Positions 56,388 to 64,000 of a DNA stretch of 64,000 nucleotides are shown piece by piece; the stretch's first letter is position 1, and every line of letters starts with the position of its first letter. The notes beneath the pieces were generated by a model. That model ran no database searches, had not been told where the DNA came from, and saw nothing but the letters and a program-made list of their open reading frames with translations. The DNA is from Pseudomonadota bacterium. Its GTDB lineage: Bacteria; Desulfobacterota; Binatia; Binatales; Binataceae. The position numbers were made by a program, and so were the translations under genes. The stretch spans positions 152 to 64,151 of the forward strand of contig JAJPIL010000001.1 of assembly GCA_021324755.1 (NCBI GenBank), given 5' to 3'.

Positions 56388-59300
56388 TCAGTCGCGGTAG
56401 TAGTCCTGAAGCGCTTGCACTTTGGACGGTCGCCTTTGTAGTGCCTCGATAGCCGTTACAGCTGCTTGCGCTCCAGCCATCGTCGTAAAATACGGTATGC
56501 GACACTCAAGCGCGGTGCGTCGTATCGAAGCCGAGTCGGCAGCGCCGACCACCTCTGGTGTGTTGATCACGAGGGATATTTTCCCATCGCGTATAAAGTC
56601 CACCACGTGGGGGCTTCCCTGAGCTACCTTCCGGACGGTGTCGCACGGGATACCTAAGGCGCGGATAAAACGGGCCGTGCCGTCCGTTGCAAGCAACTTG
56701 AAACCCATTCGATAAAGCCTGTGGACCACGCCGTCCAGTTCGCGTTTATCGCTATCTTTCACGCTCAAGAAAGCCGTGCCCGCGGTAGGCAACGATGCCA
56801 TCGCCGCTTTCTGCGCTTTGGCGAACGCAGCGGCAAACGACTCGTCGATTCCCATTACTTCTCCAGTCGATCGCATCTCGGGGCCCAGCAGTGGGTCAAC
56901 ACCGGCAAAACGCGTAAAGGGAAATACAGCCTCCTTGACCGAGACATGGCGCGGCACCTTCTCCGTAACAAAACCCAACTCAGTCAGCTTGCGTCCCACC
57001 ATTACTTGCGCGGCAAGTTTGGCAAGAGGCACGCCGATCGCCTTGCTGACGAACGGTACGGTACGAGAGGCACGCGGATTGACCTCCAGAACGTAAACTT
57101 GTCCCTGGAAAATGGCGTACTGGACGTTTATGAGGCCGACAACCGAAAGTTCGCGCGCAAGCAGCTTGGTTTGCCGCATAAGTTCGGCGACGATATCGCT
57201 TCCCAGCGATTGCGGCGGCAGAACGCACGCGCTGTCGCCTGAGTGGATCCCTGCGCGCTCAACGTGCTCCATGATACCGCCGATTACGACCGTCTGGCCG
57301 TCGGAGATCGCGTCGACGTCGACCTCGATGGCGCCTTCGAGGTACTGGTCGATAAGTAACGGGCGTTTTTCCGAGGCTGAAAGCGCTCCTTCCACGTAGG
57401 AACGCAAAGCGCGTTCGTCCCAGACGACCTCCATCGCGCGTCCTCCCAGAACGTACGAGGGCCGAATAAGCACCGGGTAGCCGATCCGGGCCGCGCCTTC
57501 TATCGCTTCGCGCTCGTTGCGCGCAATTGCGCCGCGCGGCTGCCTTAGATTGAGCTTGGCCACGAGCGCATTGAAGCGCTCACGGTCTTCGGCGCGATCG
57601 ATCGCGTCGGGAGGCGTGCCCAATATCGGCACTCCGGCCCGTTCCAGTGCGGTGGCAAGCTTGAGAGGCGTTTGCCCGCCAAACTGCACGATCACGCCAA
57701 GCGGTCGCTCCAGCCTCACGATCTCCAACACGTCTTCTAAAGTGAGCGGCTCGAAGTACAGGCGGTCGGAGATGTCGTAGTCGGTCGAGACGGTTTCAGG
57801 ATTGCAGTTGACCATGATCGTCTCGAACCCTTCGCGGCGAAGAGCCATACTCGCGTGGACACAGCAATAATCGAACTCGATCCCTTGGCCTATACGGTTT
57901 GGACCACCGCCCAAAATCACCACTTTGGAGCGAGAGGTCGGCTGAGCCTCGTTTTCTCCGTCGTAGGTGGAGTAAAAATATGGCGTGAAGGCCTCGAACT
58001 CAGCGGCACAGGTATCGACGGTCTTATAGGCTGGGAAGATCCCGAGCGCGTGGCGGCACCGCCTCACCTCCGATTCGTCGACGCCGATAAGGTCCGCGAT
58101 ACGCCGGTCGGAGAAACCCTTTTGCTTGAGGCTTCGCAGCTCATAAGCGTCAAGCGTTTTTGAAGCTTGCAGTCGTCGTTCGTCTTCGACGATTTCGGCA
58201 ATCGAACGGATAAACCAAGGATCGATTTTAGTGGCAGCGGCTATATCCTCGACCGTCATGCCGGCGCGCAACGCCTCGGCAACGTAGTAAAGTCGGCGGC
58301 TATTGGGCTTGCAAAGTCTCTCCCACAGAGCCTTGCGGGTCAAGCTTTTGCGCTCGCGCTCCGATACCCCATCGAAGCCAAAAGAGCCTATCTCCAAAGA
58401 TCGCAAAGCCTTTTGCAGCGATTCTTTAAACGTACGCCCGATCGCCATCACCTCGCCAACCGACTTCATCTGGGGACCAAGTTCGTCGGCGGCGTCGCGA
58501 AACTTCTCGAACGTAAAGCGCGGTATTTTGGTGACGACGTAGTCGATCGTCGGCTCAAAGCAAGCGGGGGTTTTCCGCGTTATATCGTTTGGCAACTCGT
58601 CAAGGCGATAACCGATTGCCAGCCGAGCGGCGATCTTAGCGATCGGGAAGCCGGTGGCCTTCGACGCTAGAGCAGAGCTGCGCGACACGCGAGGGTTCAT
58701 CTCGATTACGACCATCCGTCCGGTCTTCGGATCGACAGCGAACTGAATGTTCGAGCCTCCCGTGTCGACGCCGATCTCGCGGATGATGCGCTGAGCGGCG
58801 TCCCTCATCAACTGGTATTCCTTATCGGTCAGCGTTTGCGCGGGCGCCACCGTGATCGAATCGCCGGTATGTACCCCCATCGGATCGACGTTCTCGATCG
58901 AGCAGATGATCACGACATTATCGGCGCAATCGCGCATCACCTCGAGCTCGAACTCCTTCCATCCGGCGATCGACTCTTCGATAAGGACTTCGTGACTCGG
59001 CGAGTTTGCCAATCCCCATTCGACTTTCGCAAGAAAATCGTTGTACTCGCTGGAAAGCGCGCCTCCGGTTCCGCCTAGGGTGCGCGATGGACGAATAATC
59101 ACCGGCAGACCCAGCTTTTCTACGGCCCGCTTGGCCTCGTCGAGAGAGCGCGCGATTTGAGAGGCAGGCACGTCAAGCCCAATTTTCACCATCGCTTGCC
59201 GAAAACGATCGCGGTCCTCGGCTTTCTTGATCGCTTCGAGACTTGCTCCGATTAGTTTGACGCCGAAGCGTTCCAGCACGCCGCTTTCGGCCAGCTCGAT

Positions 59301-59597
59301 CGCCAAATTTAGGGCGGTCTGCCCGCCCAAGGTGGGCAGCAGCGCGTCCGGGCGTTCGCGCTCGATCACTTGAGCCGCAACTTCCGCCGTCAGCGGCTCG
59401 ATATAAGTGCGGTCGGCAAATTCCGGGTCGGTCATTATGGTGGCCGGATTCGAGTTCAGAAGAATGACGCGCAGGCCTTCTTCTTTCAGCGCCTTGAGCG
59501 CCTGCGTGCCCGAATAGTCGAACTCACACGCCTGACCAATCGTAATTGGCCCAGAGCCGACAACGAAAACTGAATGTAGATCTTTGCGTCGCCCCAA
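56388..59597 (-). CDS. carB: carbamoyl-phosphate synthase large subunit
   Basis: Two ATP-grasp repeats and an MGS-like C-terminal domain. N-terminus [29 protein letters not shown]. Confidence 0.95.
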
Positions 59598-59601
59598 GGT
59601 T

Positions 59602-60792
59602 CTAAACTTCGCTTTCCAAGTAATCCATCGCGCTCTTGCCGTAACGGGCGAAGAGCTCAGTCAAACGCCGAAACCGGTTGAAAAGATAGTTTGCGTCGTG
59701 CGGACCTGGAGAAGCTTCGGGATGGTATTGCACCGAAAAGAAAGGGGTGCCTAAACCCCGAAGACCCTCGACCGTATGGTCATTGAGATTTAGATGGGAG
59801 AGCTCGGCCTTGCCGCTAATCGACTCGACGTCAACAGCAAAGCCATGATTCTGCGAGGTAATCTCGACTCGCCGCGTCCTCAAATCCAAAACGGGATGAT
59901 TGGCCCCGTGATGGCCGAAGACGAGTTTGTAGGTCCGGCCACCAAGGGCCAGACCCAATATCTGATGGCCCAGGCAGATGCCAAAGATCGGGCGCTTGCC
60001 GAGCAACTCAGCCACCGTTGCGCGGGCGTAGGGCAGCGCGGCAGGGTCGCCCGGTCCGTTGGAAAGAAAAATTGCATCGGGATTTTGCGCGAGGATCTCT
60101 TGGGCCGTGCTGACGGCAGGCATTACGCGCACGCGGAAACCTGTCGTGACTAGTTTGCGCAATATGTTGCGTTTGACGCCGTAGTCGATCGCCACCACGA
60201 GCGGCCAGTCGCGAATCTCGGCTTCGCTCGGACGCAGAAATCCGCCGCCAGGCTGCCATTCTCCCAGCTCCCAGTCGTAAGGTTCGCGACAAGTAACCTG
60301 GCGCACCAAGTCGCGTCCTTCCATGGAGGGAGCCGACCTTGCCTTCTGGACAAGACTTTCCGGGTCGAGGTCGACCGACGAAATAACCCCCTGTTGCGCG
60401 CCGTGTGTGCGAATATGACGCACAAGAGCGCGAGTATCGAGCCCTTGGATTCCGACCACCTGATGGCGACGCAGGTATTCGTCGAGCGACATGCGCGAGC
60501 GCCAGTTCGACGGCGTCGGCCAGCACTCTTTTACGATCAGCCCCTCCGCGTAAATCCGGTCCGATTCGCTATCTTCGTCGTTCACCCCCACGTTGCCAAT
60601 CTCCGGGTAGGTCATACAGACGAGCTGGCCGCAATACGAAGGGTCGGTCAGTACCTCCTGATAGCCGGTCATAGCGGTATTGAAGACGACCTCTCCTACC
60701 GCCTCGCCAATTGCTCCGCAGGCGTAGCCTTCGAATACTGTACCGTCAGCCAAAGCCAATATCGCTCGTCGCGTTCGTTCAGGCACGATCAA
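59602..60792 (-). CDS. carA: carbamoyl-phosphate synthase small subunit (glutaminase)
   Basis: CPSase_sm N-domain and class I GATase with catalytic GICLGHQ. Confidence 0.95.
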
Positions 60793-62162
60793 GCTCCTTT
60801 TTCTCCGACAGTCAGCTCGTCGTACACGATCTGGCCCTCGACAATCGTCAGCACGGCTTTACCCTTGAACACGCAACCGGAAAACGGCGTGTTGCGGCTT
60901 CGCGAGCGAAAGCGCCACGGCTGCGCCTGCCAGGTGCGCTCGGGGTCAATCACCGTAACGTCCGCAGGTGCGCCGGGACGCAACGTGCCAGACTCAAGAC
61001 CCAGAAGTCGTGCCGGGTTGAGCGCCATCAATTCGACCATCCGCATCGGGCTTATAACGCCACGATGGACGAGCTCGAGCGCAAGGCCGAGCGCCGTTTC
61101 AAGACCGACGACGCCATTGGCGGCGCGCTCGAACGCCTGCGCTTGATGCTCCAGAAGGGGCTGCGGCAAGGGCGCGACGCCAGGAGGATGCGGAAAGTGG
61201 TGCACCTCTTTAGACATGTCGTCATGCGGCGCGTGGTCTGTGGCTATCATGTCAATCGTGCCGTCGGCCAAACCTTCCAAAATTTTTGCCACATCCTCGC
61301 GCGAGCGCAGCGGCGGGCTCATCTTAGCATACGTTCCCCACTGGATTACCGCCGACTCGTCCAGCGTAAAATGATGGGGCGAAACTTCGCACGTAACCTC
61401 CAAGCCGCACTCGCGCGCCCCTCGGATTATGTCGAGCGACTCTTTTGCGGAGATGTGCGCGATGTGAACCGGCGCGTTCCATCTAAGCGCGATCTCCAAA
61501 TCCCGCGCAAGCCTCGCACTCTCGGCAACCGTGGGGTAGCCCTCAAGACCGAGCCGCGCAGCGATCTGGCCAGCGTTAATTCCACGCCCTTGCGACAAAG
61601 CTCGGTCTTCCTCGTGAAGCGCGACGCGAAAGCCCAGCAAGTGCGCCTTACGTAGCGCGCGCCCCAGAAGTTCGGGATCGTCGACCGGCGCTCCGTCGTC
61701 GGAAAACATTCGCGCTCCGGCGCGGGCCATAGCTTCGAAGTCGACCAGCTCCAAGCCCCTAAGTCCCTTAGTTACAGCCGATACGGGCACAAGTTTGGCG
61801 CCACCCGCTTCCCTTGCGCGCTTGAGCATGTAGGACGTGACGGCCGGATGGTCGTTGACTGGTGCAGTGTTGGCCATCGCGGCAACTGCCACAAAGCCGC
61901 CGCTTGCCGCTGCCATAAGACCATCGGGTATCGTTTCCTTTTCTGGAAAACCGGGATCTCTTAAGTGAACATGCGGGTCGCAAAGACCGGGCGTAACCCA
62001 GCAGCCGTCCAACGCAAGCTCGATTGCCTGTGGTTGCGCGGGAATTGTGTGCGGCGGTGCAATTGCACGGATGCGCCCGTCGGCGATCCACAAGTCCGCG
62101 ATGGCGTCGTGCCGAGTGGCGGGGTCAATCACTCGTCCGTTCCTTAAAATTATCTCCTTCAA
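60789..62162 (-). CDS. pyrC: dihydroorotase (class I, amidohydrolase)
   Basis: [10 protein letters not shown] metal-binding motif. Sits between pyrB/pyrR and carA. Confidence 0.9.
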
Positions 62163-64000
62163 ACGTGCTTACCTTTCGAAGCTCCTGACTCGAGCATCGA
62201 GTAAAGCACTACGCGCTCAGTCGCTTTACGTTTGCCGACAGGCTCTTGGCTGTCCAGATAGACGCGCACGCGCTCTGTGGGTGCGGTGGGAAGGTTTTTG
62301 CCGGCATAATTGGGACGAATAGGCAACGCACGATGGCCTCTGTCGATAAGCACCGCCAACCTAACCGAAGCCGGCCGACCAGCGTTCCACAAGGCGTTCA
62401 TCGCGCGCTGGACGGTCCATCCGCTATTAATCACGTCATCGACCAGCACGATCGTTCTTCCGTCGAAGGCTAGGCCATCCTTACCCTCAAGGGGAACGAT
62501 CCTTGCTTCGTCGCCGACAACACTCACTGCCGCGCATGGCAGAACAATCCCGGTCTTGTCGGCGATGAGGTCGCGCAGGCGCAGCGCCAAGATAGCGCCA
62601 CGAGTAAGGATGCCCACCACGGTCACACCGGTAAGATCGCTCAGATCGGCGATTATTTGCTCAGCCAGACTCTCGAGCGCGCGCCTCATCTCCTGCGCGT
62701 TCATCACTTCGCGCTGCGGTCCACGCCGGTACGGCTCATAGCCGCTTTCCTCGGCCTGTTTCGGGTCGCGGAACACCATAAGCGACCCCTCCTCGACCCA
62801 TCGCCGCACATAGCCGTACAAAGTTTCGTCAAAACGATAGTACCGGCGCGAACGGCTGTTACCCACGTAATCGAAGCGCGCCTCATGCTCGCAGTAATCG
62901 CACTGGAGCGTCAGCGCGGACCGATCTCCCCATGGCGCGAATCTAAAACGCGGACTGAGGTAGGCGCTTTCGCTTCGCGTGATACAGGTGGGATTGGCGC
63001 ACATGGGATGAACGCGCGAGCTGAAGGCGATCGCCTTTGGCGAACGGCGCGGCTTTGCCTCTCCCTGCGCGGCTAGCTGGATAAGCCATGCTATCAAAGC
63101 CATTCGTACGGGCACCCCGACGGCGGCCTGCTCGAAGTAGATGGCCCGCGGATCGCTATCCAATTCATAAGCCAACTCATCAGTACGAGGCAGCGGATGC
63201 ATGATTACGGCCGACTGGGTTCGACTGCCACGAATCGCGCGCGAATCGACGTGAAAATATTCGGAGCCCACCTCGTGCCCATCCTTGAGCCGTTCGCGCT
63301 GAAGCCGCGTTACATAAAGCGCGTCGACCACAGGCGGATCTGACTTTACAGCGCGAGCAGCCCCGGCAGCCATCTCGCCGGTGAAAAGCGCCATCTGATG
63401 GGGTTCACGCGGCGTGAGATAAAGCGCATCGAGATCGGAAGCCAGGGACTTCAACTCGGCTATGCTCACCGTGGCGAATTTATAGTTGCGCTGCACTGCT
63501 AGGCGCGCCAAAACATGCTCCGGAACCTCCATGCCTTTGTTGGGCACTGCCAAAATATTGGCTCCAAAACGGGCAAGCGCGTACATCAGCGAATGAACCG
63601 TTCGCCCGTAGCGAAGGTCGCCACAGATCGCCACGGTGAGGCCCTTAAGGTCTCCTTTCTTGGAGCGAAGAATGTAGAGATCGCACAGTGTCTGGGTCGG
63701 ATGCTCTCGGCTGCCATCGCCGGCGTTGATTACGGGCGACGAGGCGTACTCGGCTGCCACTTTCGCTGCGCCCTCGTGCGGATGGCGTAACACGATCAGG
63801 TCAGCATACGCTGACACCACGCGCACGGTGTCGGCCAAACTCTCGCCCTTGGCAACTGAGCTCGTCTTCATATCGGCTGAGCTTATGACCGAGCCTCCCA
63901 GCCGATGCATCGCGGCTTCGAAACTCAAACGGGTACGCGTCGAGGGTTCGTAGAACAAAGTCGCCATAATAAGGCCTTGAGCAAGGCGCGGAGTGTCGCC
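62159..64000 (-). CDS. pyrB-pyrR: aspartate carbamoyltransferase catalytic chain (5' end beyond the window) fused in frame to a PyrI-like zinc domain and a C-terminal PyrR (pyrimidine operon regulator / UPRTase) domain
   Basis: The ORF (62159..63967) begins mid-PyrB at YEPSTRTRLSFE, and the reading frame runs on to the window edge at 64000. After the PyrB C-terminus (HPLPRTDEL ... RMALIAWLIQL) comes CANPTCITRSE ... LQCDYCEHEARFD, which resembles the PyrI Zn domain. A PyrR/PRTase domain follows (VGILTRGAILA ... IVLVDDVINSGWTVQRA). No stop codon separates them. Confidence 0.75.
   Translation of the reverse strand, partial: GDTPRLAQGLIMATLFYEPSTRTRLSFEAAMHRLGGSVISSADMKTSSVAKGESLADTVRVVSAYADLIVLRHPHEGAAKVAAEYASSPVINAGDGSREHPTQTLCDLYILRSKKGDLKGLTVAICGDLRYGRTVHSLMYALARFGANILAVPNKGMEVPEHVLARLAVQRNYKFATVSIAELKSLASDLDALYLTPREPHQMALFTGEMAAGAARAVKSDPPVVDALYVTRLQRERLKDGHEVGSEYFHVDSRAIRGSRTQSAVIMHPLPRTDELAYELDSDPRAIYFEQAAVGVPVRMALIAWLIQLAAQGEAKPRRSPKAIAFSSRVHPMCANPTCITRSESAYLSPRFRFAPWGDRSALTLQCDYCEHEARFDYVGNSRSRRYYRFDETLYGYVRRWVEEGSLMVFRDPKQAEESGYEPYRRGPQREVMNAQEMRRALESLAEQIIADLSDLTGVTVVGILTRGAILALRLRDLIADKTGIVLPCAAVSVVGDEARIVPLEGKDGLAFDGRTIVLVDDVINSGWTVQRAMNALWNAGRPASVRLAVLIDRGHRALPIRPNYAGKNLPTAPTERVRVYLDSQEPVGKRKATERVVLYSMLESGASKGKHV

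Follow-up and report, generated by a model that had tools for sequence, protein, structure and literature searches.

A conserved single-chain fusion of PyrB, a PyrI-type zinc domain and a PyrR-family domain in the pyrimidine operon of Binatia

We analyzed a stretch of 64,000 nucleotides from contig JAJPIL010000001.1 (GenBank assembly GCA_021324755.1, family Binataceae), which we call the window. At its end, on the minus strand (62159-64000), lies all but the beginning of a gene for aspartate transcarbamylase (ATCase), the textbook model of allosteric regulation. The gene encodes one 649-residue polypeptide made up of a PyrB catalytic chain, a linker, a zinc domain of the kind found in the regulatory chain PyrI, a mini-domain and a phosphoribosyltransferase (PRTase) domain of the PyrR family. 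We confirmed that this gene is real and that it is conserved in the class Binatia of the uncultured phylum Binatota. We lean slightly toward the view that its product would be a single-chain regulated ATCase, in which a zinc domain docks on a class B core and a PyrR-derived pseudo-PRTase replaces the allosteric domain of PyrI as nucleotide sensor and dimerizing unit.

Translation of the window protein (window 62159-64000, minus strand) gave 613 sense codons and a stop codon, with no internal stops. The frame continues past the window edge, beyond which lie the first 36 codons of the fusion gene. The complete protein, P0001, has 649 residues, is 100% identical to the window protein across all 613 window-encoded residues, and is encoded on seven independent contigs (ENA, Logan assemblies). 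Numbering in P0001 equals window-protein numbering plus 36 and is used for the parts of the gene listed here:

63074..64000, minus strand: PyrB catalytic chain (P0001 residues 37-345; residues 1-345 are the full PyrB part), matched by Pfam OTCace_N and OTCace and by TIGR00670
63329..63472, minus strand: insert in the PyrB aspartate domain (residues 213-260), where the HMMER alignment splits (query 212 to 261 against target 207 to 219)
63023..63073, minus strand: variable linker between PyrB and the zinc domain (residues 346-362), the least conserved region
62861..63022, minus strand: PyrI-type zinc domain (residues 363-416), with a PyrI_C match and four Cys
62999-63001, 62984-62986, 62900-62902 and 62891-62893, minus strand: the four Cys codons of the zinc domain, located in the sequence
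62711..62860, minus strand: beta-beta-alpha-beta-alpha mini-domain (residues 417-466), which joins the zinc domain to the PRTase domain
62162..62710, minus strand: PyrR-like PRTase domain (residues 467-649), whose best PDB matches are PyrR
62702-62704, minus strand: internal Met codon
62417-62419, minus strand: Trp codon (GWT) of the loop that binds phosphoribosyl pyrophosphate (PRPP)
62159-62161, minus strand: stop codon

Four Pfam families matched the window protein: OTCace_N (window-protein residues 5-112, E 2e-40), OTCace (225-306, E 1e-20), PyrI_C (334-377, 32.2 bits against a gathering score of 23.4) and Pribosyltran (431-563, E 2e-16). Pfam and NCBIfam E-values this low exclude a chance ORF (open reading frame) in GC-rich DNA. 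The initial annotation of this DNA had described a single ORF that runs from PyrB to the PyrR-like domain without an in-frame stop, quoting from it the peptides CANPTCITRSE, CDYCEHEARFD and MNAQEMRRALESLAEQII. All three peptides are found in the minus-strand translation, and the unbroken frame holds both in that translation and in the majority of the related loci described below.

A protein search recovered at least 120 clusters at 64-74% identity. Cluster lengths were 644-662 residues, with a single exception of 635 residues; all four Pfam families were listed in 118 of the 120 clusters, whose source names were mostly Candidatus Binataceae. We also scanned one genome per species with the zinc-linker segment as the query. 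At least 103 species-representative genomes encode this segment, and their labels are nearly all Binataceae, Binatus, Binatia or, under an older name, 'Deltaproteobacteria' metagenome-assembled genomes. Two rare divergent fusions, P0129 and P0138 (653-658 residues, 29-35% identity), have the same four-domain architecture, and their composition suggests a host organism of lower GC content.

ORF integrity was examined in 84 related loci. PyrB, the zinc/linker segment and the PRTase domain stand in one unbroken frame in 68 of them (median length, 649 residues), a contig end cuts the ORF in four, and the ORF is interrupted in 12. Perhaps, then, a sequencing or assembly error had erased a stop or frameshift between separate pyrB, pyrI-like and pyrR genes? 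The 12 interrupted loci might be taken to favor such an artefact. However, all 12 are long-read 'contig_N'/MFD assemblies in which the break positions differ, and in the three that have called genes (L004-L006) the neighboring pyrC, carA and carB are fragmented too. The ORF is intact in 68 independent assemblies and an identical protein is encoded on the seven contigs; hence, the absent stop is not a sequencing error. We consider the chance of an artefact negligible, and the suggestion that a stop between pyrB and pyrR had been lost is contradicted by the same independent assemblies. Apparent stand-alone 'Zn-PyrR' proteins proved to be fragments from frameshifted long-read copies. Since these proteins are fragments and the breaks are confined to long-read assemblies, we conclude that the related loci give no sign of a separate regulatory chain and that the fusion is genuine. 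Frameshifts in long-read metagenome assemblies have also left spurious database entries for a 'stand-alone PyrR with zinc domain', annotated as PyrR. The fusion genes themselves are named 'phosphoribosyltransferase family protein', 'aspartate carbamoyltransferase catalytic subunit' or even 'PyrR'. The consequence for annotation is that hundreds of database copies stand under generic or misleading names.

The initial annotation had offered a further way in which one long ORF could yield separate products: a free PyrR-like protein could be initiated at the internal Met (window 62702-62704). In keeping with this, the Met is kept in approximately 90% of fused forms, while free PyrRs have Leu at that position. 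The surroundings of the Met argue otherwise. A Shine-Dalgarno-like motif precedes it in 2 of 67 loci, compared with a 12% background at random in-frame positions, and the Arg codon ahead of it is almost always CGC, which avoids GGAG. The preceding peptide, GYEPYRRGPQRE, is nearly invariant, and few parts of the protein are better conserved than the 50 residues ahead of the Met (mean majority-residue frequency 0.80, compared with 0.81 for the catalytic carbamoyl-phosphate domain). In the distant fusion P0138, Leu occupies the Met position. A canonical pyrR, moreover, adjoins the fusion gene upstream. We regard internal initiation as very improbable.

What kind of ATCase is the catalytic chain? 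Despite the truncation of the window copy, it scored 278.4 bits against the ATCase family TIGR00670 (cut-off, 236.95). Its catalytic motifs, STRTR, HPTQ and HPLPR, are all there and do not vary; score and motifs place it among ATCase catalytic chains. In HMMER searches, the closest solved ATCases were those of Methanocaldococcus jannaschii (2.6e-79), Pyrococcus abyssi (1.3e-78) and Escherichia coli (1e-65); weaker matches were the trimer-only enzyme of Bacillus subtilis (7e-36) and the dihydroorotase (DHOase)-partnered enzyme of Aquifex (5e-25). Foldseek gave template modeling scores (target) of 0.8-0.87 to PyrI-associated ATCases. These sequence and fold comparisons show the catalytic chain to be of the PyrI-associated (class B) type.

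The aspartate domain of this chain carries an insert of 37-48 residues: the region spans 48 residues, compared with 11 in M. jannaschii PyrB. It contains an invariant PHQMALFT, within 'TPxxPHQMALFT', and an apparent strand duplication (LDALYLTP ... VDALYVTR). The insert is found in every fusion, including the distant P0125, P0129 and P0138, and is absent from all solved ATCases. AlphaFold2 (AF2) modeled it with a predicted local distance difference test (pLDDT) value below 50. The insert may be part of the regulatory interface. The linker that follows PyrB has a mean majority-residue frequency of 0.39 and no invariant columns among its 17, and homologues differ in its length.

The zinc domain is recognizably that of PyrI. 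All 35 members examined matched PyrI_C (PF02748), at 32.2-35.6 bits against the gathering score of 23.4, and none of the four Cys varies among 120 sequences. A profile search of PDB with this domain returned PyrI chains only, aligned at E. coli residues 105-149 (E 1e-4), and the motifs CxNxNC and (Y/F)CE(R/K)E are common to the zinc domain and E. coli PyrI. The AF2 model (pLDDT 78) superimposed on E. coli PyrI chains over 43 columns with a root mean square deviation of approximately 2 A and a probability of 0.97-0.99; the corresponding Foldseek E-values are weak (>=0.11), the domain being very small. The allosteric domain of PyrI (PF01948), in contrast, had no Pfam match at E<=1 in the window protein, and tblastn with E. 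coli PyrI_N found nothing in the window or in 86 loci. Since the allosteric domain is lacking, the protein carries what its sequence identifies as a PyrI zinc domain and is not a PyrI. This bears out the earlier description of a PyrI-like zinc segment without the allosteric domain. It also disposes of the notion that the segment is merely a conserved C-terminal extension of PyrB, as both the gathering score and the fold point to a genuine PyrI_C.

Between the zinc and PRTase domains lies the mini-domain, with a mean majority-residue frequency of 0.80 and 13 of 50 columns invariant. AF2 modeled it at pLDDT 83-90. No Pfam family matched it at threshold, and no PDB entry matched it by sequence or fold; matches to Ada_Zn_binding were weak (4 of 35 members, best E 0.03). 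Its motif 'F.s.k.AEe.GYePY' resembles the Ada motif 'F.s...A...GfrPC', with the cysteines missing.

The last domain has PyrR proteins as its best PDB matches, Thermus 1ufr (6e-29) followed by the PyrRs of B. subtilis, Bacillus caldolyticus and Mycobacterium tuberculosis, and has the signature DRGHRxLPIR and the VDDV..G.T loop in common with them. Against the PyrR equivalog NF003549 (cut-off, 138), however, it scored 132.7 bits on its own and 131.1 bits as part of the full protein, whereas the free PyrR encoded upstream scored 199.1 bits. Fused domains form one monophyletic clade and free PyrRs another, and the two share approximately 35% identity within a genome. Hence, the fused domain is an old PyrR paralogue under its own constraints.

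We compared residues between 68 fused domains and 68 free PyrRs of the same genomes, using B. subtilis numbering; the fused domains fall into those of Binataceae and those of a second Binatia lineage. R15, R19, H22 (to D/E) and R/K27 (to D/E) are kept in the free PyrRs and lost in both fused lineages. The fused domain thus no longer has the full conserved basic RNA-binding face of PyrR, which comprises R15, T/K18, R19, H22 and R27 of helix 1 plus R141, R146 and K152. Mutagenesis of B. subtilis PyrR by Savacool and Switzer in 2002 reportedly assigned RNA binding to T18, H22, R141, R146 and, probably, R27 and K152. Over the helix-1 region, the fused domain has a net charge of -4.0, compared with +1.0 for free PyrR. 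Neither fused lineage has Y72-R73-D74-D75 (YRDD), 100% conserved in free PyrRs, and a 7-residue deletion accompanies its loss; R115 is lost (to Q or K), and A147 and D148 are also changed. Fused and free domains alike keep D105, D106, G111, T113, D137-R138-G139, R141, K152 and R161, while R146 is kept in the Binataceae fused domains and is K in the second lineage. Changes confined to the Binataceae fused domains are R112 to W (100%), Y109 to N and T110 to S. As a result, the PRPP loop reads INSGWT in Binataceae, whereas the other Binatia lineage keeps GRT; DD, G and T are invariant. The distant fusions P0129 and P0138 keep GRT and (F/Y)RDD, i.e., the canonical PyrR motifs, and degeneration of the fused PRTase domain therefore looks progressive. 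The initial annotation had proposed a chimeric ATCase carrying a cis zinc domain and an RNA-binding/UPRTase (uracil phosphoribosyltransferase) regulator. The architecture stands. The description of the fused domain as an RNA-binding/UPRTase regulator is probably wrong, given its score below the equivalog cut-off, its helix-1 charge of -4.0 and its lack of YRDD.

In Binataceae the fusion gene belongs to an operon with the order pyrR (free, canonical), fusion, pyrC, carA, carB, and this synteny is conserved in related loci. The downstream genes in the window are as follows:

60789..62162, minus strand: pyrC (dihydroorotase), from the ORF list, with Pfam Amidohydro_1 and DHOase matches on identical contigs
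56388..60792, minus strand: carA (59602-60792) and carB (56388-59597), from the ORF list, with Pfam CPSase and GATase families on identical contigs

As listed, the fusion stop overlaps the TTG start of pyrC by 4 nucleotides (62159-62162, GTTTGA), and the pyrC stop overlaps the carA start by 4 nucleotides (60789-60792). The overlaps would suggest translational coupling along the operon if the ORFs are as listed; the listed TTG starts simply mark the earliest codons at which translation could begin and may differ from the true starts, and a gene caller on identical contigs placed the pyrC start 27 nucleotides downstream. In the second Binatia lineage (L069-L086), carA directly follows the fusion and there is no pyrC in the operon; the PRTase domain there keeps GRT and is without YRDD.

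On identical contigs, a stand-alone pyrR, which carries the motif VLVDDVLYTGRT, lies 40 nucleotides upstream of the fusion gene, beyond the window, and is itself preceded by 23S and 5S rRNA genes. Of 84 loci, 80 have a free pyrR ahead of the fusion; in the other four, a contig end truncates the copy. In L002, a contig of the window's organism, the pyr operon begins approximately 400 nucleotides downstream of the 23S-5S pair (positions 1-582), and the same arrangement is found in L007, from a related species.

The initial annotation had called for a look upstream of pyrB for PyrR-binding RNA motifs, and we observed a hairpin with covariation ahead of free pyrR. It has the form CCUUU(U)AA-stem-CYGNGA-stem-AAAGG and was aligned across 22 loci, among them that of the window's organism (L002, 905-942). 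In its upper stem, 97.6% of cells are paired, compared with 26-48% in slid controls, and 3 of 6 pairs have changes on both sides. The hairpin of L074 (3221-3330) scored 56.3 against the Rfam PyrR family (RF00515; gathering score, 54). RF00515 had no match in the window, outside which the upstream region lies, or in L002 at E<=10. A terminator (GC hairpin and T-run) follows the leader hairpin in non-Binataceae Binatia and in many Binataceae; none is evident in L002 or L007, which may use a different read-out, e.g., translational control. Since the operon itself encodes a true PyrR and has a leader hairpin, its control at the RNA level seems to rest with the free PyrR.

What, then, might the fused domain do? 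In the single-chain regulated ATCase toward which we lean, the C-terminal half of the fusion would be a built-in (cis) regulatory chain of the enzyme. The ancestral partnership would have been of class B (PyrB with PyrI), with the zinc docking domain kept and fused and the allosteric domain of PyrI swapped for a PyrR paralogue. The zinc domain would dock on the carbamoyl-phosphate domain of a catalytic chain in the manner of E. coli PyrI. The PyrR-derived domain would have shed its RNA-binding face and probably its catalytic features (the flexible loop) while keeping the phosphoribosyl-binding loop. It would bind nucleotide or PRPP and presumably dimerize as PyrR proteins do, thereby bridging two catalytic trimers, and the outcome would be a homohexamer equivalent to c6r6. 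True PyrRs bind uridine and guanosine mono- and triphosphates (UMP/UTP, GMP/GTP) and PRPP; given these natural ligands, a PyrR-derived domain is a plausible sensor of pyrimidine sufficiency.

Several points weigh against this proposal. The domain order is inverted relative to PyrI, with zinc before sensor rather than allosteric before zinc, so that the geometry of signal transmission is not transferable from E. coli. The full-length AF2 monomer model is moderate (pLDDT 70, predicted template modeling score 0.63). The R-to-W change in the Binataceae PRPP loop could abolish ligand binding rather than retune it.

Three other functions were considered. The C-terminal module could be an oligomerization scaffold only, a pseudo-enzyme dimer that ties two trimers together without sensing a ligand. 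Several canonical PRTase residues are indeed degenerate, and class A ATCases use an inactive enzyme paralogue (DHOase) as a structural partner (PMC4581275). Yet D105, D106, G111 and T113 are invariant in both Binatia lineages, and W112 is invariant in Binataceae; a functionless pocket is not expected to stay so conserved, and a pure scaffold is in our estimate unlikely. The protein might instead be a bifunctional enzyme, its PRTase domain an active UPRTase that joins de novo ATCase to salvage, with the zinc domain and mini-domain as mere spacers. True PyrR proteins possess UPRTase activity, and the PRPP-loop residues VDDV..G.T, DRG and R141 are kept at approximately 100%. This proposal must contend with the loss of the YRDD flexible loop, accompanied by a 7-residue deletion, and with the changes of R112 to W and R115 to Q/K. 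It leaves unexplained why a PyrI zinc domain and a mini-domain with core-like conservation are retained, and the neighboring gene already supplies a free PyrR scoring above the equivalog cut-off. We find it rather unlikely as well.

The third possibility is a role at the RNA level. The PyrR-like domain could bind the pyr leader, or it could pair with free PyrR as a heterodimer, in which case the attenuator would be titrated by the amount of ATCase. The equivalents of R141, K152 and R146 (K in the second lineage) are kept, PyrR proteins are obligate oligomers in PDB entries, free pyrR and the fusion are adjacent and probably cotranscribed, and the operon leader has a hairpin of the PyrR-binding type. 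However, the charge of helix 1 is reversed with the loss of R15, R19, H22 and R27, and the domain, at approximately 35% identity to free PyrR, falls under the PyrR equivalog cut-off. We think it quite improbable that the fused domain still acts on RNA.

Beyond the single-chain regulated ATCase itself, we offer a wider proposal tentatively, as having somewhat less than an even chance of being correct. Binatota would use a fourth architectural type of bacterial ATCase, a homohexamer in which a pseudo-PRTase dimer stands in for the PyrI allosteric dimer, connected through the ancestral zinc domain. The PyrR family would then control the pathway twice per operon, through a free paralogue acting on RNA and a fused paralogue acting on the enzyme, with both reading uridine/guanine nucleotides or PRPP. 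A replacement of the allosteric domain, if confirmed, would reveal how evolution can reassemble modular allosteric control, would provide a natural template for engineering effector specificity, and would be a case of a regulator paralogue turned pseudo-enzyme sensor. For Binatia, the fusion also makes a clean marker, much like a synapomorphy. Three prokaryotic ATCase types, namely, with DHOase, with PyrI (separate or fused) and as the trimer alone, are recognized in a 2015 review of the transcarbamylase family, which never mentions PyrR (PMC4581275). A description of an ATCase-zinc-PyrR fusion was not found in the literature that we searched.

The fusion can be set against each of the known systems. 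Like class A ATCases (PyrB with active or inactive DHOase, as in Pseudomonas and Aquifex), it would have recruited a paralogue of a pathway protein as the partner of the trimer (PMC4581275), and pyrC adjoins it with the 4-nucleotide overlap as listed. Unlike in class A, the catalytic chain is only distantly similar to that of Aquifex (5e-25, compared with 1e-79), the partner is fused and of the PyrI_C and PRTase type, and the operon of the second Binatia lineage has no pyrC. Its last domain is like PyrR of B. subtilis, Thermus and M. tuberculosis, which supply its best PDB and NCBIfam matches. Unlike PyrR, this domain is not free-standing, lacks YRDD and the basic helix-1 residues, and in Binataceae has GWT for GRT. 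The fused PyrB-PyrI of Thermotoga maritima (NF009916/PRK13376) likewise combines catalytic and regulatory parts in one polypeptide, but that family has a complete PyrI (allosteric and zinc domains), which the Binatia fusion lacks. The window protein is not a member of NF009916, scoring 77.8 bits against a cut-off of 800 and through its catalytic part only. According to the title of Chen et al. 1998, as cited in PMC4581275, the fused catalytic-regulatory ATCase of T. maritima remains allosteric, and a single-chain regulated ATCase is therefore feasible.

The closest comparison is with the class B ATCase of E. coli and archaea (PyrB6-PyrI6). The catalytic subtype is the same, and the 4-Cys zinc domain is homologous to PyrI 105-149. 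The fusion differs in having no PyrI N-terminal domain, in carrying the zinc domain covalently on the C-terminus of PyrB, in the 37-48 residue insert of its catalytic chain, and in a putative sensor that has the PRTase fold and follows the zinc domain. It thus looks like a natural allosteric-domain swap, in which the docking zinc domain was kept and the sensor was replaced by one of a different fold, taken from the RNA regulator of the pathway.

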